Shown: positions 6,179-16,728, counted from the first letter of the stretch. The stretch: DNA of 24,000 bases from Pseudomonadota bacterium (GCA_043806875.1 JAZDGN010000049.1:185254-209253); one strand, 5' to 3'. The notes: generated from the sequence alone by a model not told the origin. Made by a program: numbers and translations.

Positions 6179-6796
6179 TTATTGGATCAGGTCTGCGCCG
6201 AGGTCATAGGCCTTGAGGTTAAGGGACACCTTGTCCCTGGTAAATGTCTCGGCCAGGGTCTGTTCAAAGACCTGACGGTCCAGGGGGAGGTCATGGGTGG
6301 CAGCCAGGGCCCCGGCCATGATGATGTTGGCAAAAATGGGGTCCCCCATGTCCGAGGCCAGGGCAGTGGCGTCCAGGAACCAGGCCCTGGCTGCAAGTTC
6401 CCGGACCCAGGCCTGGATTTTTTCCATGGACGGGTAGTCCAGGCGTCCCGAGATGACGCCTATGGGGTGTGTCGGCCGGGTGTTGCAGATGACCTTGACC
6501 CCGGGGTTGCCATAGGCGGTCAGGACCCTGATGGTCTCGATGGGCTCCAGGGAGACAACCATGTGTGCCATTCCCTGGGGGATCTGGGGCGACAGGGCTT
6601 TCCCGGACGAGATCCGCACATGGCTCATGACCGAGCCGCCCCTCTGGGAGGCTCCGAAGGTTTCCCCGATGGTCACGCCATAGCCCTTTTTCGAGAGCAT
6701 GGATCCGATGATGCGGGAGGAGATGACATTGCCCTGGCCTCCCACGCCAGTGATGATCAGGTTGTAGGGATCATGAATCAAATCAGGGGATTTCAT
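6179..6796 (-). CDS. iorB: Indolepyruvate:ferredoxin oxidoreductase subunit beta
   Basis: The conserved start is MKSPD...YNLIITGVGGQGN, and ATG 6796 overlaps the iorA stop (ATGA 6793-6796). The domain is the gamma type of 2-oxoacid oxidoreductases. Confidence 0.8.
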   Translation of the reverse strand: MKSPDLIHDPYNLIITGVGGQGNVISSRIIGSMLSKKGYGVTIGETFGASQRGGSVMSHVRISSGKALSPQIPQGMAHMVVSLEPIETIRVLTAYGNPGVKVICNTRPTHPIGVISGRLDYPSMEKIQAWVRELAARAWFLDATALASDMGDPIFANIIMAGALAATHDLPLDRQVFEQTLAETFTRDKVSLNLKAYDLGADLIQ

Positions 6797-8724
6797 GAAG
6801 GGCGTTCCTTTCTGGTAATGGCGCGGTTGGGGCAGACCGAGGTGCAGACCCCGCATCCGGCGCAGATGTACTCGTTGATCCGGGCCTGGTTCAACGCTTT
6901 ATCCCAGATCAGGCCCGGACAGGCAAACACCCGGGTGCAGAGCCTGTTGCAGCCGCAGTCCCCGCCCAGGCAAAGTTCCGGATCAACAGCCATGTCAAAG
7001 GCCTTGTGTCTTTTTCTTTCAGGGCTCAGGGCACAGGCCTGTCGCAGTACCAGGACCTTGACCCCATGGTCGGCCTGGATCAGTTCAAGGAGGGCTGCCT
7101 GCGTGGCCTCCAGGTCAAAGGGGTCGCAGACAACGGTTTCAGCGCCCATTGCCTGGCAGATGGACGCGATGTCCAGGCCTGGGACCAAATTCCCGCGCGC
7201 GTCCACCGGGAGTCCGGGGTGGGGCTGAAACCCGGTCATGGCAGTTCCGCTGTTGTCCAGGATCACCATGGTAAACTGTGAACCGGTGTGGATGGCATTG
7301 ACCAGGGGGGGCATACCGGAGTGGAAAAAGGTGCTGTCACCGCATACGGCCAGGACCGGTTGATCCATGCCAAAGGCTCCGAGCTTCCCGAATCCGCTGG
7401 CAAGGCCTGACCCGGAGCCCATGGAGTGAAGGGTTTTCAGGGTGAAATACCCGCCATGGAGCATGCCCATGGAATAGCAGCCGATGTCTCCGCAGGTGAA
7501 ACCCTTCCGGTTGTCAAGCTGCAGGACCGTGTTGATGGTAAAGTAGGAGGCCCTGTGGGGACATCCGGGACAGAAGGAGATCTCCCGGTCAGGGATCCGG
7601 GTTGCCATGGCAGAGGTCCTGGTCTTGTACTCATCGGTCACTGCATCATGGGCCAGACCGAACAGTCCGGCCAGAGCCTTGATGACGAGATCGGGGTTGA
7701 GTTCATTCATCACGGGGATGTGGCCGCTGTGTTTCCCGAAAAAGATGTTCCCCTGACCGCCGGTCCCAGACTCGGCTGCCAGGATTTTCACCCCTTCCTC
7801 CACAAAGGGCTGGACCTCTTCCACGAACAGGACCCTGGGGGTCAGGGCAAGGCGTTCCTGGATGAGTTTTTGGGGCAGGGGCCAGGTGGTGCCCAGTTTG
7901 AGGATGCCGACCCTGGTCGAAAGGCCCAGTATCTGAACCGCCTCCCGGCTGTACAGGCTGCAGATGGAACTGGTGATGATGAGCAGTTCCGGCCGCTCGG
8001 GTCCTTCATAGGTGTTAAAGGGCGATGTTTCGAACAGGGCCTGGGCCCGGGCAAGGCGCTGGTGCTGAAGATTTCTTTTGTATCCCACAGGCGGGGTCAT
8101 GACCAGACCGTCTGCGGGGTCCAGCATGTTGCCGTCGCAGTTGAACACTGCCTTGCCCTTGGGAGGTAGCATGTCGCCCAGAACAACCGGACCGCTGGCA
8201 TGGGAGAGACGGGTCACGGTACGCACCATGACCAGGATGCCCAGGGTTTCGGACAGTTCAAAGGCCCACCGTGTCATGTCCTTGGCTTCCTGAAAATCAC
8301 CGGGTTCCAGCATGGGGATCTCCATGAGCCTTGCGTAGTAACGGGTTTCCCCCTCATTGATGCTGGACAGGGCGCCGGGGTCATCGGCCGCGACCAGGAC
8401 CATGCCGCCCCGGATCCCGGACAGGGCCAGATGCATGAGAAAATCAGCGGCAACGTTCACGCCGGGCTGTTTCATGACAGCCAGGGCGCGCAGGCCCGCA
8501 AAGGACCCGGCAGCCGCAACTTCCAGGGCGACCTTTTCATTGACCGACCACTCTGAGTAAATGTCGGGGCATGCCTTGGACAGACGTTCGATGATCTCCG
8601 ACGACGGGGTTCCCGGATACCCGGCTGCAACGCTGATGCCGGCTTCCACCGCTCCCCTGACAATGGCCTCATTGCCCATCATCAGGTGGCGGGCTCCGGG
8701 GCTGTTCTGATTAAAAATGGACAT
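6793..8724 (-). CDS. iorA: Indolepyruvate:ferredoxin oxidoreductase subunit alpha
   Basis: ATG 8724 (MSIFNQ) has a GAGGAAA RBS. TPP-enzyme motifs are present (GYPGTPSSEI, GDSTFFHSG). The C-terminus has 2x[4Fe-4S] motifs (CAGCGVCTSVCP). Size is about 640 aa. Confidence 0.85.
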   Translation of the reverse strand: MSIFNQNSPGARHLMMGNEAIVRGAVEAGISVAAGYPGTPSSEIIERLSKACPDIYSEWSVNEKVALEVAAAGSFAGLRALAVMKQPGVNVAADFLMHLALSGIRGGMVLVAADDPGALSSINEGETRYYARLMEIPMLEPGDFQEAKDMTRWAFELSETLGILVMVRTVTRLSHASGPVVLGDMLPPKGKAVFNCDGNMLDPADGLVMTPPVGYKRNLQHQRLARAQALFETSPFNTYEGPERPELLIITSSICSLYSREAVQILGLSTRVGILKLGTTWPLPQKLIQERLALTPRVLFVEEVQPFVEEGVKILAAESGTGGQGNIFFGKHSGHIPVMNELNPDLVIKALAGLFGLAHDAVTDEYKTRTSAMATRIPDREISFCPGCPHRASYFTINTVLQLDNRKGFTCGDIGCYSMGMLHGGYFTLKTLHSMGSGSGLASGFGKLGAFGMDQPVLAVCGDSTFFHSGMPPLVNAIHTGSQFTMVILDNSGTAMTGFQPHPGLPVDARGNLVPGLDIASICQAMGAETVVCDPFDLEATQAALLELIQADHGVKVLVLRQACALSPERKRHKAFDMAVDPELCLGGDCGCNRLCTRVFACPGLIWDKALNQARINEYICAGCGVCTSVCPNRAITRKERPS

Positions 8725-8775
8725 GGTTTCCTCTTCGGCTCTCAATATTCCAATGCAGTACCGTTGCCATGACGA

Positions 8776-9885
8776 TTATCGCAATCCCATGATGGTCTGT
8801 TTTTCCTGTTTCAGGGCAGGTTCCTGGAAGGCCTTTGATGTCATTCCCAAAGTCTGGGCCTTGTCACTGGCCCTCTGTCTCTTGTTGGCTGCTGCCTTGG
8901 AAAGGCCGTCCAGGCACGCCTGGGCAAAAGGTTCAACCTCGAGCATTCCGTTGATCACAGCCTGGTCCACAAGGCGCTGGCCAAGGGGTGTTCTGACGAT
9001 CAGGGTGTTCCAGCCAGTTCTGCCTTCCAGTGCCCCGACGGACAGGTCTGTAAACTCCCCGGTCATGTCCGGGCAGATGGCGCATCCACCGGGCACGAGC
9101 CGGCGCAAGTCGTCCAGGGGGAAGGTCATCACTGAATCGGTAAGATTCAGCACAAAGGTTTCGGCAGGCGGCGGCGGGATATCCATGGACCGGATTGATT
9201 GGGTGTCCACCCCTTTGGCAGCCATATACCGTGCAAAACGGGCCGCGTCCACAGCCCAGGTGCAGAAGAGTCCGATTCTCAGGGACGTGATGTCGCGGAA
9301 TCCGGTTTTCTGCAGCGGATTCATGCGCAGTTGGGCAAGGGCTGTCATCTGGCATGGGGTGCCCACCACGGCCAGTTTGCCCAGAGGACCGTCCATGGCT
9401 GCGTTCAGGGCTGCCAGTGTAGGCGTGGCCATGTACTTGGATGACGCGCAATGGAGGATGCCCGCCTCCGTGTCCGTGATCAGTGGGGCTGGGGTCAGGC
9501 CGTGCCTGTCCGTGAGCAGGGCCCCATGGATGAGGCCCAGACGCAGTGCCTGGATCACCAGGGAGGATACGGTGCCGCCGTTCTGGAACTGTCCGTCCGG
9601 AGCCTTTTTCCCCCTGCGGGCTGAAAGGATGGACAGGCATGAACCCAGGGGTGACTGAGGCTGGGGTTCCTTGAAGCAGTGCCTGGACAGCTCATCCCTG
9701 TCCACACCGATATGGGGGCAATGGGCATAGCACCGTCCCTGGGATCTGTCGCAGGCAAAGACCTGGATCACAGACCCGTTGTGGGACCTTAAATAGGGGC
9801 ACATGTCAGCGCAGGCTCCGCAGGATGTGCACAGATTGGCATCCCGGATGCGCTGGATAAGTTCCAGAGGGCCGAATATCTGCAT
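8776..9885 (-). CDS. FrhB/FdhB family (F420 hydrogenase/dehydrogenase beta-like) FeS flavoprotein
   Basis: AGGAG lies 8 nt before ATG 9885. The N-terminus has the ferredoxin motif CTSCGACADMCP plus CYAHCPH. VVGTPCQMTALAQL is typical of FrhB/FdhB C-terminal domains. The gene sits 51 nt upstream of iorA on the same strand. Confidence 0.7.
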   Translation of the reverse strand: MQIFGPLELIQRIRDANLCTSCGACADMCPYLRSHNGSVIQVFACDRSQGRCYAHCPHIGVDRDELSRHCFKEPQPQSPLGSCLSILSARRGKKAPDGQFQNGGTVSSLVIQALRLGLIHGALLTDRHGLTPAPLITDTEAGILHCASSKYMATPTLAALNAAMDGPLGKLAVVGTPCQMTALAQLRMNPLQKTGFRDITSLRIGLFCTWAVDAARFARYMAAKGVDTQSIRSMDIPPPPAETFVLNLTDSVMTFPLDDLRRLVPGGCAICPDMTGEFTDLSVGALEGRTGWNTLIVRTPLGQRLVDQAVINGMLEVEPFAQACLDGLSKAAANKRQRASDKAQTLGMTSKAFQEPALKQEKQTIMGLR

Positions 9886-10215: not shown

Positions 10216-10293
10216 GTTTTTGCTTGTGTAAAACTCTTTCAGGCAAAAATATGAATGATGAACGCAGGAGAAATTCTGCATTGCGGAGACTGT

Positions 10294-10794
10294 ATGTCCC
10301 GGTTTTTCATGTCAGAGTTCGTGTATGCAGCAGTCCGGTGCGGACTCGCCATGGTATTTCTCTATTCCGGTGTGATGAAGCTGGCTGATCTTGGGGCCTT
10401 TGCGTCGGTGATCGAGGCCTATGGCATTGTCCCCTGGGAATTCAAGTCTTTGTCAGCCCTGGTGATCTCCCTGGCAGAGGTCTTTGCCGGGGCAGGGCTT
10501 CTTTTGGATGTTCGGGGAAGCCTGACCGCTGTAGCCGTGATGCTGGTTGTATTCATGGCAGTCCTGGGTTTAGGGATCCACATGGGGTATGACATTGACT
10601 GCGGCTGTTTCGGTGAGGATGACCCGGTGGGCAAAGCCATGCACGGGCTTGGCCGTGCCTTGATCCGCGATTTGGTTTTTACGGCAGGAGTTTTGTACTG
10701 TTATGTCTGGCGCTATCTGCATTCCCATGAACCGGCAGGCCTGGCAACCTATTTTTATCACCTGGTAAATGGAAAAAAGAGGAGAAGTTTATGA
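10294..10794 (+). CDS. MauE/DoxX family redox-associated membrane protein
   Basis: The ORF opens at 10255; ATG 10294 is preferred because GGAGA lies 4 nt upstream. Four TM helices are present, with LYSGVMKL and DIDCGCFGE motifs. The stop overlaps the next start (ATGA 10791-10794). Confidence 0.7.
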   Translation: MSRFFMSEFVYAAVRCGLAMVFLYSGVMKLADLGAFASVIEAYGIVPWEFKSLSALVISLAEVFAGAGLLLDVRGSLTAVAVMLVVFMAVLGLGIHMGYDIDCGCFGEDDPVGKAMHGLGRALIRDLVFTAGVLYCYVWRYLHSHEPAGLATYFYHLVNGKKRRSL

Positions 10795-11336
10795 AGAAAT
10801 CCGCAATGTTTTCAATGGTCGCAGGTCTGGCAGCAGCGGTTCTGGCGCTTGTTTTCACGGCAGGCCAGTCCCACGCGCTGCTCGATGGCAAATTTGAAAA
10901 AGAAGTAGAGGTTGAAAAAAGTGCTGTAAAACTGGTAAAAGAAGTTCAGCGGGGCGGTTATGATATTGTTGACACTGCCCAGCTCAAAGGGTGGATCGAT
11001 GAAAAAAAGGACATGATCATTGTCGATACCATGCCCTATGCTGACAGTTATGTTAAGGGGCATGTGCCGGGAGCAAAACAGTTCCTGTTTCCCATCCCGG
11101 ACATGACAACCTGGGATGCCAAGGAGACTGACCAGAAGTCCGTTGACGATTATAAGGCCCTTCTGGGACCGGATCTGAATAAGCTCATTGTGGTCTATTG
11201 CGGGTTTGTCAAATGCACCCGCAGCCACAACGGTGCTGCGTGGGCCAAAAAACTGGGATATACCAATGTTTACAGATACCCCGGCGGAGTATTCGCCTGG
11301 AAGGGTGCCGGATTTGAAGAGGAGACCGTCAAGTAA
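10791..11336 (+). CDS. Exported rhodanese-domain protein
   Basis: AAGAGGAGAAG RBS. Sec-type signal peptide (AGQSHA/LL). Rhodanese motifs IIVDTMP, YVKGHVPGA and IVVYCGFVKCTRSHNGAAWAKKLGYTNVYRYPGGVFAW. Confidence 0.8.
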   Translation: MKKSAMFSMVAGLAAAVLALVFTAGQSHALLDGKFEKEVEVEKSAVKLVKEVQRGGYDIVDTAQLKGWIDEKKDMIIVDTMPYADSYVKGHVPGAKQFLFPIPDMTTWDAKETDQKSVDDYKALLGPDLNKLIVVYCGFVKCTRSHNGAAWAKKLGYTNVYRYPGGVFAWKGAGFEEETVK

Positions 11337-11979
11337 CGACCCTGAACTCATTGTTTTTGTGAGAGCCCCTGAACAGGGGAAGGTAAAGACCAGGCTTGCC
11401 CGTCATCTGGGTGAGACCCTGGTCCTTGCCGTTTACAGGGGCCTGGTGGAACAGATCCTGGCGGCCGTATACCAGTCCGGAATAAGGACGGTGATCTGCT
11501 ATTGTCCGGACGATAAGGGAGCCATGGTGAGTGATTGGCTGGGGACGGATCCTGAGTATCGTCCCCAGTCAGGGGACGACCTGGGGGATCGCATGTTCCA
11601 GGCCCTGGACCATGCCTTCTCCTCCGGGTGTTCCAGGGCTTTGCTCATGGGTTCGGACATACCGGATGTGACGGCGGCCCACCTCCTGGAGGCGCTTTCC
11701 ATTCTGGATCAATGCGACATTGTGCTGGGACCTGCCCTGGATGGCGGTTACTGGCTGGTGGGTCTCAACAGGAATGGGCTTGACCGCAGTCTGTTTCACA
11801 ATGTTGACTGGGGAACGGACAGGGTCCTGTCTGCAACAACCAAAACTGCGGCCGCCCTGGGGCTGACTGTGGGTTTTGCTGCAACCTTGAGGGATGTGGA
11901 TACCCTGGAGGATCTCATGCTGTCACCTGCCGGTTCAGGACTTCTTGAACGGCTGAAAGATAGGGTGCGGGGTACCTGA
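11314..11979 (+). CDS. DUF2064 / TIGR04282-type transferase (family now named arsenosugar biosynthesis glycosyltransferase)
   Basis: Hallmark motifs LIVFVRAPEQGKVKTRL, LMGSDIPD, ALDGGYWLVGL and VDWGTDRVLSATT. No ATG exists after the rhodanese stop. TTG 11314 was chosen because GGAAGGG lies about 9 nt upstream; alternatives are GTG 11305, ATG 11266 and GTG 11359. Confidence 0.7.
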   Translation: MKRRPSSNDPELIVFVRAPEQGKVKTRLARHLGETLVLAVYRGLVEQILAAVYQSGIRTVICYCPDDKGAMVSDWLGTDPEYRPQSGDDLGDRMFQALDHAFSSGCSRALLMGSDIPDVTAAHLLEALSILDQCDIVLGPALDGGYWLVGLNRNGLDRSLFHNVDWGTDRVLSATTKTAAALGLTVGFAATLRDVDTLEDLMLSPAGSGLLERLKDRVRGT

Positions 11980-12087: not shown

Positions 12088-12696
12088 TCAGGGCATGGCG
12101 GCAAGTTTGTCATAATCCACTTTTTTGGCATAGGCGGTCAGGTCTTCCTTGGTGACACCGTTGCCTTCAATGGAGACAAAAAACCTGTTTGCCACAACAA
12201 TTTTGATATTGCCATCCCTGTCGTTTTCATTGTAGGTGACGATGGCTTTCTGTTTACCGACCTTTTCAAGTTTGCCTCCCTCGGAGGCTGCAAACATGGG
12301 GTTGGAAAACATCATCATCACGCCCTGCATCAGGGGCGAATCCGTGAGGATCTGGATGGTCACCTGGCTGGAATCTTTGGTATAGGTTCTTTCTGCGGAT
12401 ACGCCGCCGCCGAACATGGCGGCTCCGGCTGCGGTGGAGTTGGACGGTTCTGCTGTCCACCCGCTCAGGGGCGCAGGCAAATAGGCCTCCAGGCCCTGGG
12501 CTTTTGTCTGCATCATGAGCTGGGTGGCATAGTTCAGGCTCTGTATGGCTGCGGAAACGTCTCCCTTTTTGTAGTTTTCCAGACCTTCGTTGATGGAATC
12601 GGTGATGTCATCCGCAGATGCACTCAGGGCAGATCCGAGAACAATGATTCCCAGGATGGCGAACATCACTGTCATACGTTTAATCAGATGTTTCAT
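12088..12696 (-). CDS. Secreted protein of unknown function (Met-rich, Cys-free)
   Basis: AAGGAGAA RBS. Signal peptide MKHLIKRMTVMFAILGIIVLGSALSASA/DD. Composition is normal, unlike the antisense ORF 12022-12810. No family recognised. Confidence 0.7.
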   Translation of the reverse strand: MKHLIKRMTVMFAILGIIVLGSALSASADDITDSINEGLENYKKGDVSAAIQSLNYATQLMMQTKAQGLEAYLPAPLSGWTAEPSNSTAAGAAMFGGGVSAERTYTKDSSQVTIQILTDSPLMQGVMMMFSNPMFAASEGGKLEKVGKQKAIVTYNENDRDGNIKIVVANRFFVSIEGNGVTKEDLTAYAKKVDYDKLAAMP

Positions 12697-12870: not shown

Positions 12871-13572
12871 TTAATAGTACCGGGCCAGACGCTCCGGGGG
12901 AATGCCCAGGAAAAACAGGCTCACCAGAGCCCAGTTTCGCAGTGTCGTGCACACGATACCCTGGGACTCCCACCGTCTGGCTGACGTGGACACGGTATGC
13001 CTGAAAATCAGAGGTTTTTTTCTGGTTTTTTTGAGTTTTCCCATCAAGGCCACATCTTCCATGATGGGAATGTCCGGAAACCCGCCCACGGCCTCAAATA
13101 CCTCCCGGCCCATGAACATGGCCTGGTCACCGTAGGGGATCCCTGTAAGCCTGGAGCGGAGCGAGATGACAGCCTCAATGATCCTGTATATGGGGCGCCG
13201 GCAGTTGATATTGAGGTCAAAGGCGCCGAAAAGCCAGTCACCCCGGGACTGGAAAGCGGTGTGGATCAGATCAAGTCCGGTCTGAGTGATGCGGGTGTCG
13301 GCATGGAGGAAAAGGAAGATGTTTCCACAGGCTGTCCTGGCTCCGGCATTCATCTGGGGCCCCCGGCCCCTTAGAGCCTTGAGCAGGAGAATCCTGGAAT
13401 CCATTGCTGCCTCTGATTTTAGGCAATCCAGGGTGCTGGCCTGCGCTTCCCCGTCAACTACGATGATTTCCATCCCTCCGGGAAAGGCCAGGCTCAGAAG
13501 ATGGTCTAAAGCCGTGCGGATGATTTTTTGTTCCTTGAAAACAGGAATTATGATAGATAGTCTGGACGTCAT
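12871..13572 (-). CDS. GT2-fold TIGR04283-type transferase (family now named arsenosugar biosynthesis glycosyltransferase)
   Basis: Motifs LSIIIPVFKE, IIVVDG, GRGPQMNAGARTACGNIFLFLHADT, GAFDLNI, IPYGDQAMFMGREVFEAVGGFPDIPIMEDVALMGKLKK and STSARRWESQGI...IPPERLARYY. Start is ATG 13572, or GTG 13590. Confidence 0.8.
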   Translation of the reverse strand: MTSRLSIIIPVFKEQKIIRTALDHLLSLAFPGGMEIIVVDGEAQASTLDCLKSEAAMDSRILLLKALRGRGPQMNAGARTACGNIFLFLHADTRITQTGLDLIHTAFQSRGDWLFGAFDLNINCRRPIYRIIEAVISLRSRLTGIPYGDQAMFMGREVFEAVGGFPDIPIMEDVALMGKLKKTRKKPLIFRHTVSTSARRWESQGIVCTTLRNWALVSLFFLGIPPERLARYY

Positions 13573-13608
13573 GGGAAAATGAATTAACACACCTATAGGC
13601 TTTTTTGT

Positions 13609-16600
13609 ATGATTATTTCAGGTTTGGAAGACTGGGAACGTGTTTCATGGGATGGACTTGTCCTGTACGTAAGACCGGAGGCGCCGGACTGGTTTGTTCC
13701 ATCGGAAAAAGGGGACGCCATTCTCCGGAAATTGAGGGCAGGTCAGCCATGGCAGGATGAAACCCTTACCGGACTGGACAGGGTTAAGGCGCGGCAGTTC
13801 CTGTCCATCCTGCCGGAGACGGTTGTATCTCAACCCTATAAAGGACGGGGCAGGTGCTTAACCCTTACGGGACTTACGGAATTCTGGTTCCATGTCACGG
13901 ACCGGTGCAACCTGGCCTGCAGGCACTGCCTGTTTTCCTGCAATGGGACCGGGGCTGTCATGGATTTTCACCTGTTCAGGAGTGTGGTGGACCAGGTCCA
14001 TGACCTGGGTGCAAGGACACTCTACTTCACCGGGGGCGAGCCCCTGGTTCATCCACGGATCCGGGCCATGTGCCGTTATGTCCTTGATAAATCACCGGAT
14101 ACCCACCTGGTAATGCTGACCAACGGGTTCGCTATCCCGGGATTTGAACCGTTCATCAGGAGCCTTGACCTTTCAAGGATCCATTTCCAGATCAGCGTTG
14201 ACGGGGATGGCCCCCTTCATGATCAGGTCAGGGGCAGAGGCACCCATGCCGTACTCATGGAAGCCATTAACGTCCTGTCGGCCCTGGGGGCTGATATTAC
14301 CCTGGCCATGACCGTCCACCAGGGAAATCTCGGGTTCATGTCCGGATTGATCGACCTGGCCGGTCAGTTTTCCATAACCAATGTCCACTTCCTGTGGCTT
14401 TTTGTCACCGGCAATGCAACCAGTGACGGGTTTGCCGGACCACGCGAGATTTTTCCTTTTCTGGAAAAAGCCCATTACCATGCCCGCAGAGCCGGCATTG
14501 TCATTGACAACATCCAGGCCATGACCGAACAGGTGTTTTCCGTGCCCGGGACCCGGCACGACCTGTCCAATGCCGGGTGGGAATCCCTTGCCATGGCACC
14601 TGACGGATCCATCTATCCTACCCCGGCCCTGATCGGAAGGCCAGACGCCCTGTGCGGGAAGGCTGATTCGGGGATAGGGGCTGTATGGAGACACAGCCTG
14701 ATCCTTTCAAAAATCCGCAGCCTGTCTGTTGAAGGCGATGACAAGCTCCGGAACAATCCTTTGAAATTCATCACCGGGGGCTGCGACCTGGATCACTCCT
14801 TTTATGCAGGGGGCGAATTTACCGGTTATGATCCCTACCTTGAACTTTACGACCGTATTGCCCTGATGCTTATCAGGGAGCATGTGGACCGGCACAGGGA
14901 TGGTCTGGGTCGGGTCTGGCCCGGAGTCCTGGCCCGCATGGGCGACCGCCTGGAGAACTGTGACTACACCGGAAGCGGTGTTGTTTTCACCCATTCCAAT
15001 TGCGTGCTCTCCTTTTCCGGTGCCCGGAAAAAGGTAGAGGCCTTTTATGCCGGTGCAGCCCGTAACCCGGAAGCCGATGCCGCCATCCTGAACCCTGTGT
15101 GCTATCCCCCGGATCAGATCGCCCACATCCCGGACTATGCCCGGGTTCGATCCTTTGGGTGCGGAAGCCCGGTAATGGACGCTGCCGTCCAGGAGGGGGA
15201 GACTGTTGTCGATTTGGGCTCGGGCACAGGTGTCGAGTGTTTTATTGCCTCCAGGATCACAGGAAAAAGTGGCAGGGTCGTGGGCATCGATATGACCGAC
15301 ATTATGCTGGACCTGGCCACACGGGCATCACGGGATACAGCCAATACCCTGGGGTATGGGAACACGGTGTTTGTAAAGGGTTTTCTGGAGGATATCCCCC
15401 TGGAGTCGGGGTGTGCGGATGCCGTGATCTCCAATTGTGTCATCAACCTGACATCGGACAAACCCGGGACCCTGAATGAAATTTTCAGGATACTCAAACC
15501 CGGAGGCCGGCTGGTGGTTTCAGATGTGGTCACCGATTCCCGGCCTGGGCCAGGGATTCTCAATGATCCGGAACTCAGGGGGGAATGCATTGCCGGTGCC
15601 ATGGTCCTAAATCAGCTCATGGCACTTCTGGAGCAGACCGGGTTCGTGAATCTCAAGATTATCAAACGGTTTTTTTACAGGGAAGTCAAAAATCACCGGT
15701 TCTATTCCGTCACCTACCAGGGGAACAGACCCGGAGCGGAACAGGCCCTGAAATCTGTAATCTATCCCGGCCCCTTTGCCGCTGTTATGACCGATACCGG
15801 TGAAATTCTGGTCCGGGGCCAGGTCCTGGACCTTTGTGTATCCCATGCCCTGGAAACAGATCCATCGCTGTACATCCTGGATGCCCTGGGGAATGCTCTC
15901 GGGATGGAAGGCCAGAATACCTGTGCCTGCTATCTGCCCCCTGAAGACCAGGCGCCTGTTCGGGAGATTTCCGGACCGGTAAGGAGCCCGCTCCAGACCG
16001 CCGGGCCCGGAGATACCACGGCACAGGGCCTGGGAATCGCCAGAAGCATGACCGGATGCATGGTCTGTTCAGCTCCCCTGGTGTACACGGATGGGTTGGA
16101 AAAGGGGGTGTGCCATTACTGCCAGGCCCTGCTTCCGGTGGACGCCAGGTGCGTAAACGGCCATTTTGTGTGCAACCAGTGCCACTCCCGGGATGCTGTT
16201 AAGGTTGCGGAAACCATACTCACCTCCACCCGTGAAACCGACATGATCACCCTGATGAATATTGTCCGCAGCCATCCGGGGGTACCGCTCCACGGTCCGG
16301 AGCACCACTTCATTCTTCCCGGGGTTATCCTCGCGGCCTTTCGCAACAGCGGCGGTGCCCTGGACAATGACCGGATCCTGGCCGGTATCCAGCGGGGAAA
16401 GGCGGTTCCCGGGGGCGTGTGTGCCTTCTGGGGAACCTGCGGTGCCGTGACCGGTGCCGGTATTGCCCTGGGGATCATCCTGGAGTCCAGTCCCCTGAAA
16501 CCAAGACCGCGCAGGATCGTCCAGGAAATTACCGCAGCCATAATCAAAGAACTGGCAACCATCGAAGCCGCCCGGTGCTGTCAGCGGGAAACATGGACGG

Positions 16601-16728
16601 TCCTGAAAATGGTCGGCGACCTGTCCCTGAAAGTGCTTGGCGTTGAACTCAAGGCAGAAGGATCCGTGAGCTGCGCCCAGAAACATTTGAACAAGGAGTG
16701 TGCCCTGAAGCAATGTCCTTATTTCTGA
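13609..16728 (+). CDS. Three-module fusion: radical SAM (SPASM-like) + ArsM-type arsenite S-adenosylmethyltransferase + Cys-rich C-terminal domain
   Basis: Single uninterrupted 1039-aa ORF. ATG 13609 is the first possible start (in-frame TAA at 13585-13587). Radical SAM CNLACRHC at aa 100-107. ArsM motifs FGCGSP, DLGSGTGVEC, GIDMTDIMLDLA, VISNCVINL, FRILKPGGRLVVSDVVT and RGECIAGA. The C-terminus has CxxC zinc-ribbon-like pairs plus CAFWGTCGAVTGAG. Confidence 0.85.
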   Translation: MIISGLEDWERVSWDGLVLYVRPEAPDWFVPSEKGDAILRKLRAGQPWQDETLTGLDRVKARQFLSILPETVVSQPYKGRGRCLTLTGLTEFWFHVTDRCNLACRHCLFSCNGTGAVMDFHLFRSVVDQVHDLGARTLYFTGGEPLVHPRIRAMCRYVLDKSPDTHLVMLTNGFAIPGFEPFIRSLDLSRIHFQISVDGDGPLHDQVRGRGTHAVLMEAINVLSALGADITLAMTVHQGNLGFMSGLIDLAGQFSITNVHFLWLFVTGNATSDGFAGPREIFPFLEKAHYHARRAGIVIDNIQAMTEQVFSVPGTRHDLSNAGWESLAMAPDGSIYPTPALIGRPDALCGKADSGIGAVWRHSLILSKIRSLSVEGDDKLRNNPLKFITGGCDLDHSFYAGGEFTGYDPYLELYDRIALMLIREHVDRHRDGLGRVWPGVLARMGDRLENCDYTGSGVVFTHSNCVLSFSGARKKVEAFYAGAARNPEADAAILNPVCYPPDQIAHIPDYARVRSFGCGSPVMDAAVQEGETVVDLGSGTGVECFIASRITGKSGRVVGIDMTDIMLDLATRASRDTANTLGYGNTVFVKGFLEDIPLESGCADAVISNCVINLTSDKPGTLNEIFRILKPGGRLVVSDVVTDSRPGPGILNDPELRGECIAGAMVLNQLMALLEQTGFVNLKIIKRFFYREVKNHRFYSVTYQGNRPGAEQALKSVIYPGPFAAVMTDTGEILVRGQVLDLCVSHALETDPSLYILDALGNALGMEGQNTCACYLPPEDQAPVREISGPVRSPLQTAGPGDTTAQGLGIARSMTGCMVCSAPLVYTDGLEKGVCHYCQALLPVDARCVNGHFVCNQCHSRDAVKVAETILTSTRETDMITLMNIVRSHPGVPLHGPEHHFILPGVILAAFRNSGGALDNDRILAGIQRGKAVPGGVCAFWGTCGAVTGAGIALGIILESSPLKPRPRRIVQEITAAIIKELATIEAARCCQRETWTVLKMVGDLSLKVLGVELKAEGSVSCAQKHLNKECALKQCPYF
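13870..15018 (+). other. Radical SAM core plus degenerate SPASM/twitch-like extension (module 1 of the fusion)
   Basis: CxxxCxxC at nt 13906-13929. FTGGEPLV, MLTNG and ISVDG strands follow. The segment LAMAPDGSIYPTPALIG...FITGGCDLDH resembles a SPASM hairpin but has only four Cys (C349, C392, C451, C465). Boundaries are approximate. Confidence 0.6.
15031..15735 (+). other. ArsM-type methyltransferase module (module 2 of the fusion)
   Basis: Colinear with characterised ArsM as I recall it from R. palustris: LGCGNP / DLGSGGG / LDMTDEML / VISNCVINL / FRVLKPGGRFAVSDVVT / GCLAGAL. The three As(III)-ligand Cys contexts are conserved (C518, C610, C660). Boundaries are approximate. Confidence 0.8.
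16051..16728 (+). other. Cys-rich C-terminal module (zinc-ribbon-like CxxC pairs plus a C_GCAxxG_C_C-like/DUF5714-like helical domain)
   Basis: CMVC-x13-CHYC-x8-C-x5-CNQC, then HGPEHH, CAFWGTCGAVTGAG, ARCC, and C1022/C1031/C1036. The family name comes from memory of the motifs only. Confidence 0.5.

Follow-up and report, generated by a model that had tools for sequence, protein, structure and literature searches.

A conserved fusion of a radical SAM domain, an ArsM-like arsenite methyltransferase and DUF5714 as a candidate organoarsenical synthase of anaerobic bacteria

A gene in a 24,000-nucleotide (nt) stretch of a Pseudomonadota bacterium genome (GCA_043806875.1 JAZDGN010000049.1:185254-209253; hereafter the window, to which feature positions refer) encodes a 1039-amino-acid (aa) protein in which a radical S-adenosylmethionine (SAM) domain is covalently joined to an ArsM-like arsenite methyltransferase and to a C-terminal DUF5714 domain. 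Motif conservation shows that the three modules form a conserved protein and that its ArsM and its radical SAM (rSAM) domain are both equipped for catalysis. With moderate confidence, we propose that the fusion is a single-polypeptide organoarsenical synthase that fills both the ArsM and the ArsS roles in a cassette of TIGR04282 and TIGR04283 genes. To our knowledge, just two biological routes to non-methyl C-As bonds are known, those of ArsS (arsenosugars) and ArsL (arsinothricin). The pairing of ArsM with a C-As bond-forming radical SAM enzyme is thus familiar in kind; what is new is the lineage of the radical SAM domain, its covalent fusion to ArsM and the added DUF5714 module.

The fusion gene and its family

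The original prediction, made from the nucleotide sequence, described one uninterrupted open reading frame (ORF) encoding two catalytic modules. The ORF is intact (Table 1), and the motifs named in that prediction (CNLACRHC at residues 100-107, DLGSGTG, C518, C610 and C660) are all found at the residues given. The two modules are present as well, but their count was too low because a third part, a Zn-ribbon-like cluster followed by DUF5714, had been overlooked. The full order of modules is an N-terminal domain resembling the recognition element (RRE) of enzymes that act on ribosomally synthesized and post-translationally modified peptides (RiPPs), the radical SAM core, a degenerate SPASM region, ArsM, a cysteine-containing arm, the Zn-ribbon-like cluster and DUF5714. 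Pfam recognizes Radical_SAM (aa 96-239, E 4.5e-17), Methyltransf_31 (aa 529-645, E 1.1e-24) and DUF5714 (aa 869-1039, E 1.8e-53).

An assembly or frameshift artefact, which would have undone the prediction, is ruled out: NCBI holds a sequence-identical protein (P0001), on a 211,680-bp contig and labelled 'MAG: DUF5714 domain-containing protein' (MAG, metagenome-assembled genome), and at least 120 protein clusters of full-length homologues (~1010-1090 aa, 42-61 % identity) carry all three Pfam domains. The sources of these homologues include isolate assemblies, some of them complete, from Desulfobacterales such as Desulfoluna, Desulfosarcina ovata and Desulfobacter hydrogenophilus. A metagenome scan for the fusion confirmed 459 stretches, from which 80 full-length loci were retrieved. 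Database members number hundreds, under generic names, and the architecture is new to the literature only: in PMC and bioRxiv, we found no description of the rSAM-ArsM-DUF5714 architecture or family, so that its supposed novelty stands for papers and not for databases.

The conservation of cysteines and motifs was assessed in a census of 117 unique family proteins with 32-60 % identity, to which the conservation figures given below refer. The pairwise identities of the three modules correlate across these proteins (r = 0.83-0.88), which indicates that the modules evolve as one unit. This bears on another outcome that had been named as fatal to the prediction, namely clustering of the N-terminal half with peptide-modifying enzymes and no co-evolution with the ArsM half; the fold of this half is indeed nearest to peptide maturases, yet the modules do co-evolve. 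The window protein departs from the conserved cysteine set at a single position, residue 871 (nt 16219-16221), which is Leu here and Cys in 91 % of the family.

Table 1 Features of the window; residue numbers are those of the fusion protein (pLDDT, predicted local distance difference test; TPP, thiamine pyrophosphate)
Feature	Position (nt)	Strand	Basis or remarks
rSAM-ArsM-DUF5714 fusion gene	13609..16728	+	complete ORF, ATG start, TGA stop, 1039 codons, no internal stop
N-terminal RRE/PqqD-like domain, aa 1-85	13609..13863	+	three beta-strands, then helices; AlphaFold pLDDT 68-91
Radical SAM core, aa 90-300	13876..14508	+	CxxxCxxC at aa 100-107 (nt 13906-13929); GGE motif T141-G-G-E-P145; PF04055
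SPASM-like fold without cluster cysteines, aa 301-445	14509..14943	+	fold match, cysteine census
Linker, aa 446-489	14944..15075	+	C451, 'THSNC' motif (C465); pLDDT <50
ArsM arsenite methyltransferase module, aa 490-745	15076..15843	+	SAM motif, As(III)-ligand cysteines, NCBIfam, PDB matches
Predicted disordered arm, aa 760-811	15886..16041	+	N-x-C772-x-C774-Y motif; pLDDT <50
Zn-ribbon-like cluster, aa 812-860	16042..16188	+	Cys/His set; weak Pfam double zinc ribbon match, E 0.018; beta-ribbon in model
DUF5714 all-helical domain, aa 869-1039	16213..16725	+	PF18978, E 1.8e-53
TIGR04283-family glycosyltransferase	12871..13590	-	NCBIfam 226.6 bits (cut-off 182); likely start ATG at 13572
TIGR04282-family (DUF2064/CofC-like) transferase	11188..11979	+	NCBIfam 191.4 bits (cut-off 134)
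MauE/DoxX membrane protein and rhodanese	10255..11336	+	mutually overlapping, next to TIGR04282 and co-directional with it; possible accessory genes
TPP riboswitch RF00059	16806-16915	+	70.4 bits (gathering score 54.3)

The ArsM module

The claim that the ArsM half is fully equipped was based on the SAM-binding motif (aa 535-541) and three candidate As(III)-ligand contexts, FGCGSP (C518), VISNCVINL (C610) and RGECIAGA (C660), and the structural alignment and the census agree with it. With residues counted along the printed PDB alignment, C518, C610 and C660 line up with Cys72, Cys174 and Cys224 of CmArsM, and all three are present in 117/117 members. The best matches of aa 475-765 among solved structures are arsenite methyltransferases (5evj, E 8.9e-37; CmArsM 4fr0/4fs8, E 1.6e-32), CrArsM structures also align, and the best NCBIfam family is PRK11873 (205.8 bits, profile positions 42-242 of 272). 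A fourth, N-terminal cysteine of ArsM (Cys44 in CmArsM) is needed to methylate As(III) and not methylarsenite, MAs(III). The candidate for this cysteine in the fusion is C498 ('NPVCYP'), which lies outside the PDB alignment and lines up with the 'ELCCP' motif of the two-domain relatives described below.

The radical SAM half

Every member of the census has the cluster triad C100/C104/C107 and the GGE motif, and this invariance over 117 sequences at such low identity indicates a catalytic radical SAM domain. Sequence comparison with solved structures matched this half to PqqE, SkfB, CteB and MoaA. In the AlphaFold model of aa 1-478 (pLDDT 83, predicted template modelling score 0.85), three strands and helices at aa 10-66 are followed by the radical SAM barrel and then by a SPASM-like region. 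The best Foldseek match in the PDB is the RRE-containing sactisynthase CteB (5wgg; E 1.4e-15, query TM-score 0.65, 465 columns), followed by further RRE-containing RiPP maturases (SkfB, SuiB and ChlB) and then by anSME and PqqE. The N-terminal segment of the window protein (aa 1-92) has no direct Pfam match, and relatives do match PqqD (PF05402).

The domain had been described in the original prediction as a SPASM-type enzyme short of auxiliary-cluster cysteines, and this description holds. The fold matches SPASM enzymes, Pfam did not detect PF13186 (SPASM) in the fusion protein, and no cysteine within aa 300-445 is conserved in more than 56 % of the family, the best being C349 (56 %); the relatives P0290, P0292 and P0346 retain an intact SPASM domain or motif. 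All NCBIfam radical SAM matches (Rv1681 family, ScmF, StsB, ACGX, AhbD, AlbA, MftC and PqqE) score far below their cut-offs. On sequence and predicted fold, the radical SAM half belongs to an unnamed subfamily of PqqD/RRE-like, radical SAM and SPASM proteins that resembles peptide maturases. It shares with RRE-containing radical SAM/SPASM maturases (CteB, SkfB, SuiB, AlbA/StsB) the fold and domain order of aa 1-445 and the best partial hidden Markov model (HMM) matches, and differs from them in the HMM scores far below cut-off, the unconserved SPASM cysteines, the absence of a precursor peptide gene and the attached ArsM.

Neither of the radical SAM enzymes known to partner ArsM accounts for this half. 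Identity with ArsS, already doubted in the original prediction, is rejected: TIGR04167 is not among the 25 NCBIfam matches listed (the lowest at 38.5 bits), whereas a genuine ArsS, from a Nitrospirota locus described below, reaches 410 bits (cut-off 300), and a BLASTP comparison of the two proteins aligns only 135 core residues (fusion residues 99-227, 26 % identity, E 2e-8). The ArsS tail domain DUF3641 (PF12345) was not found by Pfam in the fusion protein. Identity with ArsL is rejected as well, given that NF040542 is also missing from the 25 listed matches and that the RCCLKC tail is absent, with only an internal RCCQRE within DUF5714.

Linker, cysteine arm and DUF5714

Beyond the radical SAM domain, the protein is rich in conserved cysteines. 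In the linker, C451 and C465 are invariant, and the 'THSNC' motif that includes the latter is a signature of the subfamily; stand-alone and permuted forms display 'FHCAC' or 'FHCNC' C-terminal tails. C772 and C774 of the predicted disordered arm are conserved in 97-98 % of the family, and all of the Cys/His positions in the Zn-ribbon-like cluster (C817, C820, C835, C838, C848, H852, C855, C858 and H859) are invariant. DUF5714 itself matches its profile over the entire length (positions 3-173 of 173; 181-186 bits, cut-off 26.2) and contributes C938 and C944 (CGAxxG motif), the vicinal pair in R989-C990-C991, and C1022, C1031 and C1036. Because the C-terminal 270 aa hold 14-15 nearly invariant cysteines, the earlier statement that a Cys-rich tail is lacking applies to the radical SAM half only and fails for the protein as a whole.

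In the AlphaFold model of aa 760-1039 (pLDDT 75), the disordered arm is followed by a beta-ribbon and a confidently predicted helical DUF5714. No solved structural relative of the DUF5714 part was detected by sequence, and the best Foldseek match against the PDB has an E value of 1.9. The C-terminal module scores 123 bits against NCBIfam MbdU ('metal-binding double selenoprotein'), a family for which the selenocysteine motif is listed as 'CU' (review, PMC13188914). DUF5714, MbdU and C_GCAxxG_C_C proteins share CGAxxG and vicinal CC motifs, which are in register between DUF5714 and the free-standing C_GCAxxG_C_C protein, and the fusion combines these with a full-length PF18978 match; our own HMM gave no match between DUF5714 and free-standing C_GCAxxG_C_C proteins. 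The shared motifs are suggestive of kinship. The fusion differs from these families in that its module is joined to two enzymes, whereas related cassettes encode C_GCAxxG_C_C separately. No function was found described for the three families in PMC or bioRxiv.

Association with TIGR04282 and TIGR04283

The TIGR04283 gene of the window lies directly upstream of the fusion and is divergently transcribed, and the TIGR04282 gene is located a further 0.9 kb upstream; the HMM match of the latter begins at ORF residue 54, so that its true start is probably near 11305-11359. Both families are named 'arsenosugar biosynthesis glycosyltransferase' at NCBI and are the usual companions of ArsS. The original prediction held that the chemistry may be unlike that of both known pathways; given the flanking TIGR04283 and TIGR04282 genes, which it had overlooked, this appears less likely than an ArsS-type cassette with the radical SAM domain in the place of ArsS.

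To survey the neighbourhood of the fusion, every flanking ORF of 85 loci was clustered without prior assumptions. Genes of the TIGR04282/3 type were found in 25/85 loci and a VTT/DedA membrane protein in 26/85, followed by a MerA/Lpd-like FAD disulfide oxidoreductase (PNDR; 16/85), DUF3047 (11/85) and a CCG-domain protein (9/85), and 36/85 loci hold at least one of these cassette genes. Both flanks reach at least 5 kb in 34 loci, of which 13 encode the transferases and 17 some cassette gene. In many cassette loci, the genes are packed into tight operons in which stop and start codons overlap. The order is PNDR/VTT, fusion, TIGR04282, DUF3047 and TIGR04283 in L004 and L012, whereas in L026, L054 and L065 the fusion is followed by a single TIGR04282-TIGR04283 fused protein, and such variation between lineages speaks for a functional link and against synteny retained by descent. 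Neither ArsS nor a separate ArsM is encoded within the 85 loci. An adjacent precursor peptide was also sought and rejected: the ORFs of 20-69 aa in these loci are out-of-frame noise, common to at most five closely related loci.

A canonical cassette is available for comparison in a Nitrospirota MAG (L086), where the genuine ArsS is encoded beside MsrAB, DUF2064, a disulfide oxidoreductase of like type and TIGR04283, a composition that places the fusion in the ArsS position. The hallmark association of ArsS with TIGR04282 and TIGR04283 thus holds for the fusion, as a functional analogy and not as proof of homology. Like the separate ArsM and ArsS with which arsenosugar biosynthesis begins in Synechocystis sp. 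PCC 6803 (ArsS of TIGR04167), the fusion brings together arsenite methylation by a SAM-dependent enzyme and a radical SAM partner of the CxxxCxxC type, and TIGR04282, TIGR04283, the MerA/Lpd-like disulfide reductase and MsrAB are accessory families common to both. By analogy, the expected chemistry would be the same as well, namely the reaction of dimethylarsenite, DMAs(III), with a 5'-deoxyadenosyl radical to DDMAA (5'-deoxy-5'-dimethylarsinoyl-adenosine). The two systems differ in that the window enzymes are covalently fused, that the radical SAM domain is of another lineage and has no DUF3641 Cys/Sec tail, that the fusion has the extra Zn-ribbon/DUF5714 module, and that its hosts are anaerobic Desulfobacterota rather than cyanobacteria.

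Other architectures of the radical SAM subfamily

With the N-terminal domain as query, an exhaustive profile search yielded 708 representatives (50 %-identity clusters, E <= 1e-30), the best 150 of which were classified with our own module HMMs. These best 150 of 708 comprise 22 rSAM-ArsM-DUF5714 proteins, 29 rSAM-ArsM proteins, 3 proteins of the reverse order, ArsM-rSAM, and 96 with the rSAM part only, many of the last being fragments. The subfamily is accordingly fused to ArsM in at least three architectures, the reverse order included, and once to TIGR04283. The latter case is P0245 (948 aa, truncated where its contig ends), in which radical SAM and ArsM parts are followed by a linker rich in Cys and, as the fourth part, a TIGR04283-type domain; the last of these, although truncated, has TIGR04283 as its top NCBIfam match (140 bits) and is 38 % identical to the TIGR04283 protein of the window (E 1e-32).

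The reverse-order proteins (P0292, P0293 and P0306) have a complete ArsM signature (N-terminal CC pair, GCG, NCV and SCIGGA), with a PRK11873 score of 248.8 bits for P0292, and also an RRE-like segment, an intact Cys-rich SPASM and an 'FHC(x)C' C-terminal tail matching the 'THSNC' of the window protein. The two-domain proteins finish in Cys-rich tails ('...NCCGPSCC', '...SCDPTKGCC', '...GCCACG') at the position of the CxC arm. The nearest relatives of a stand-alone member are mostly rSAM-methyltransferase fusions from Nitrospirota, Thermoanaerobaculia, Gemmatimonadales and Omnitrophota, and some relatives are annotated as 'PqqD family peptide modification chaperone'. In a Chloroflexota variant (P0408-P0427; L093, 8001-10139), a TusA-like sulfur-carrier domain takes the place of ArsM; separate TusA and DsrE genes come next, and ~4-8 kb upstream lie DUF2064, GT2 and a second rSAM-SPASM.

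The loci of the unfused and permuted forms contain genes of the same cassette. The stand-alone rSAM/SPASM gene lies between GT2 and DUF2064 in L088 and L089; L088 reads VTT, LPG_synthase_TM, C_GCAxxG_C_C, GT2, rSAM and DUF2064, and L089 has rSAM, DUF2064 and GDPD (glycerophosphodiester phosphodiesterase) in this order. In L090, VTT, LPG_synthase_TM, C_GCAxxG_C_C, a hypothetical gene and GT2 precede the ArsM-rSAM gene. In L088-L090, the GT2 genes are full-length homologues of the TIGR04283 protein of the window (37-41 % identity, E 1e-45 to 1e-48) and the DUF2064 genes of its TIGR04282 protein (31 % identity, E 1e-26 to 1e-30). Across several phyla, the subfamily is therefore either fused to ArsM, in both orders, or located inside a TIGR04282/TIGR04283 cassette at the position of ArsS. 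The VTT/DedA, LPG_synthase_TM, C_GCAxxG_C_C and GDPD genes are found at 5231-7301 of L088, 4668-6716 of L090 and, for GDPD, 10056-10886 of L089.

The two-domain rSAM-ArsM genes of L091 and L092, a Nitrospirota/Thermoanaerobaculia pair, are translationally coupled in both phyla to a PHO4/PiT permease gene that abuts or overlaps the stop codon of the fusion (10460-11590 and 10460-11542, respectively). L091 further contains VTT, DUF3047 and a disulfide reductase, and the pair of L092 lies inside a mer/cop metal-resistance island. PiT-type carriers can also take up arsenate.

Putative mechanism

Since ArsS is absent from the 85 fusion loci surveyed and its position in the cassette is occupied by the fusion, we infer that the radical SAM domain does the work of ArsS without being its orthologue. 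In the scheme that we favour, the ArsM module would bind As(III) on C518, C610 and C660, with the help of C498, and two SAM-dependent methylations would yield DMAs(III). The trivalent product would be kept thiol-bound and relayed over conserved cysteines to the radical SAM site, the candidates for the relay being C772-x-C774 on the flexible arm and C451/C465, perhaps joined by the vicinal C990-C991 of DUF5714. More speculatively, the RRE-like domain may dock the Cys arm in the way RiPP maturases dock their peptide substrates. A [4Fe-4S] cluster on C100/C104/C107 would then reductively cleave a third SAM, and the 5'-deoxyadenosyl radical would add to the arsenic, as it does in ArsS, to give DDMAA or a close analogue. 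The third carbon group added is, by this analogy, probably 5'-deoxyadenosyl. The Zn-ribbon/DUF5714 part might be the fused counterpart of the free-standing C_GCAxxG_C_C protein and act as a metalloid-binding or redox partner, and TIGR04282, TIGR04283, DUF3047, VTT/DedA and the MerA/Lpd-like disulfide reductase, here or in orthologous loci, would process or export the product.

What is known of ArsS and ArsL is consistent with this scheme. ArsS converts DMAs(III) to DDMAA by a redox-neutral adenosylation (PMC13598754; bioRxiv 10.64898/2026.04.29.721666; PMC8552651) that takes up no net reductant (PMC13598754). Auxiliary clusters are not required for such chemistry, and the fusion clade's loss of its SPASM cysteines is in keeping with this. 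ArsL binds As(III) on its Cys-rich C-terminal RCCLKC tail and not on a cluster (bioRxiv 10.1101/2024.02.01.577332), and by analogy with this delivery, candidate sites of arsenic hand-off in the fusion are its CxC arm, the pair C451/C465 and DUF5714's vicinal CC. Channelling of trivalent methylarsenicals between the active sites, put forward in the original prediction, is plausible. The likeness to the arsinothricin system extends to the pairing itself, in that a radical SAM enzyme and ArsM together make, or in the fusion would by analogy make, a non-methyl C-As bond, and to the Cys-rich tail of ArsL, which has a parallel in the Cys-rich flexible segments and the invariant RCC in DUF5714 of the fusion family. 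Unlike the fusion, ArsL belongs to another radical SAM class (NF040542), transfers 3-amino-3-carboxypropyl, acts ahead of ArsM and is unfused, and the fusion locus is without an arsQ-type permease. The VTT/DedA, LPG_synthase_TM and GDPD neighbours in other loci of the subfamily hint at a lipid- or glycerophospho-linked product.

Several observations weigh against the synthase proposal. The fold of the radical SAM half is closest to that of peptide maturases (CteB, SkfB, SuiB), and this half fails ArsS membership; the ArsM module, at 205.8 bits, falls below the curated PRK11873 cut-off of 263, and C498 is conserved in only 54 % of the family. The resemblance of DUF5714 to C_GCAxxG_C_C is weak, both against the Pfam model (26 bits, cut-off 27) and against the free-standing proteins (hhalign E 0.017, probability 2.6 %). 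In roughly one half of the loci with ample flanking sequence, for example those of Desulfoluna and Desulfosarcina, no cassette gene lies inside 5-10 kb. Finally, the 'arsenosugar' names of TIGR04282/3 derive from the association of these families with ArsS, and we found no paper in PMC or bioRxiv in which this role was tested.

A further-reaching version of the proposal, which we regard as possible but unlikely, is that a radical SAM lineage derived from peptide maturases convergently took over the job of ArsS, that the RRE docks the protein's own Cys arm, which would ferry thiol-bound arsenic as an intramolecular metalloid carrier, and that the cassette makes a membrane-linked arseno-sugar or arsenolipid in strict anaerobes of several phyla.

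Alternative explanations

The alternative that survives best, although we consider it unlikely as well, keeps the arsenic context and changes the radical chemistry: the domain would perform a 3-amino-3-carboxypropyl-type transfer, or abstract hydrogen to tailor the arsenical or a sugar or lipid acceptor, and the product would be unlike the DDMAA-derived arsenosugars, in line with the original prediction. A lineage separate from ArsS and ArsL would suit such a departure, as would the two SPASM auxiliary clusters that ancestral and stand-alone relatives keep and that are typical of H-abstraction and cross-linking enzymes; the cassettes hold lipid-related membrane proteins (VTT/DedA, LPG_synthase_TM) and GDPD, and ArsL sets the precedent of a canonical CxxxCxxC enzyme that cleaves SAM non-canonically. 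Nevertheless, the radical SAM domain of the fusion stands in the place of ArsS within a cassette otherwise common with ArsS, it has neither the RCCLKC tail nor NF040542 among its 25 listed NCBIfam matches, and the simplest substitution within a conserved cassette is one that preserves the reaction.

It is improbable that the system acts on Se, Te or Sb, likewise soft metalloids or chalcogens, in place of arsenic, with the ArsM-like module acting as a Se/Te methyltransferase and, for instance, a seleno-organic product. The three As(III)-binding cysteines are invariant and aligned with those of CmArsM, the sole experimentally characterized member of the cassette, ArsS, acts on DMAs(III), and related fusions are coupled to PiT-type permeases. 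This substrate would nonetheless agree with the abundance of selenoproteins in the surrounding families (ArsS, MbdU, ArsM fusions and TsoB-like rhodanese), with the score of the ArsM module under the curated arsenite methyltransferase cut-off, and with the MsrAB and disulfide reductases of the cassette, which suit chalcogen redox chemistry.

We consider it distinctly improbable that the protein is a plain arsenic-detoxifying ArsM in which the radical SAM and DUF5714 modules have a structural, regulatory or redox-supporting role (e.g., supplying electrons for the disulfides of the ArsM cycle) and no extra C-As bond is formed. The NCBIfam collection does define ArsM fusions to AhpD and DUF2284, which we read as C-terminal redox-type additions, no ars resistance genes would be required, and many loci are without cassette genes; but a supporting role sits poorly with the invariance of the radical SAM cluster ligands and GGE motif in all 117 sequences and with the occurrence of both fusion orders and of unfused operonic forms. 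The least probable is a RiPP-type peptide maturase unrelated to arsenic, in which a precursor would be bound by the RRE, cross-linked by the radical SAM domain and methylated by the methyltransferase: RRE-containing sactipeptide/RiPP maturases give the best structural matches, the best partial NCBIfam matches include StsB, ScmF, ACGX and AlbA, and relatives bear the 'PqqD family' chaperone label, but no conserved small ORF accompanies the fusion in the 85 loci, the auxiliary-cluster cysteines that known sactisynthases need are not conserved, the resemblance of the methyltransferase is to ArsM specifically and includes its As ligands, which are invariant, and the conserved neighbours are TIGR04282/3 rather than peptides, proteases or exporters.

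Implications

If the synthase proposal is correct, the subfamily would represent a third radical SAM lineage working with ArsM, joined to it in several independent architectures and spread over anaerobic phyla that include Desulfobacterota, Nitrospirota, Thermoanaerobaculia and Omnitrophota, among others. The fusions serve as Rosetta stones that provide independent genomic support for the TIGR04282/TIGR04283 cassette working with an arsenite methyltransferase, and they give DUF5714 and C_GCAxxG_C_C a working context. If confirmed, the activity would make sulfate reducers and other sediment anaerobes candidate producers of complex organoarsenicals, a point of relevance to the arsenic cycle and to the species of arsenic found in food webs; the metalloid-carrier version with a membrane-linked product, if true, would point to an unrecognized anaerobic source of such compounds. 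A single-chain enzyme would, furthermore, be a convenient system for studying the hand-off of toxic trivalent arsenicals between active sites.

Other genes in the window

The MauE/DoxX and rhodanese genes upstream of TIGR04282 have a weak link to the fusion because they occur near it in only 2-4/85 loci; the rhodanese has weak matches to two models, that of the selenoprotein TsoB and one for a 'rhodanese near glycosyltransferase'. Between TIGR04282 and TIGR04283, a minus-strand gene (12088-12696) encodes a 202-aa protein with an apparent signal peptide and without Pfam or NCBIfam match. A canonical ars resistance operon is rejected, as the window contains no arsR, arsB, acr3 or arsC.

Downstream of the fusion, the TPP riboswitch is followed by genes for an ABC ATPase (17019), a permease (17578) and an NMT1/THI5-like binding protein (18441) and by thiM (19574), thiE (20383) and thiD (21021). 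These riboswitch-led genes are a thiamine-precursor salvage operon regulated apart from the fusion gene. A functional link of the fusion with the ABC transporter and thiM/thiE/thiD is rejected, because the riboswitch starts a separate unit and the neighbourhood of the fusion in other loci lacks these genes as a recurrent feature.

At the beginning of the window, a plus-strand ORF (31-1137) encodes pentapeptide repeats and a C-terminal ion-channel (Ion_trans_2) domain and is followed by a gene for an HDOD-domain protein (1188-2036). The minus-strand genes at 6179-9885 encode the alpha and beta subunits of indolepyruvate:ferredoxin oxidoreductase and an FrhB/FdhB-like Fe-S protein, a set that fits a strictly anaerobic host.

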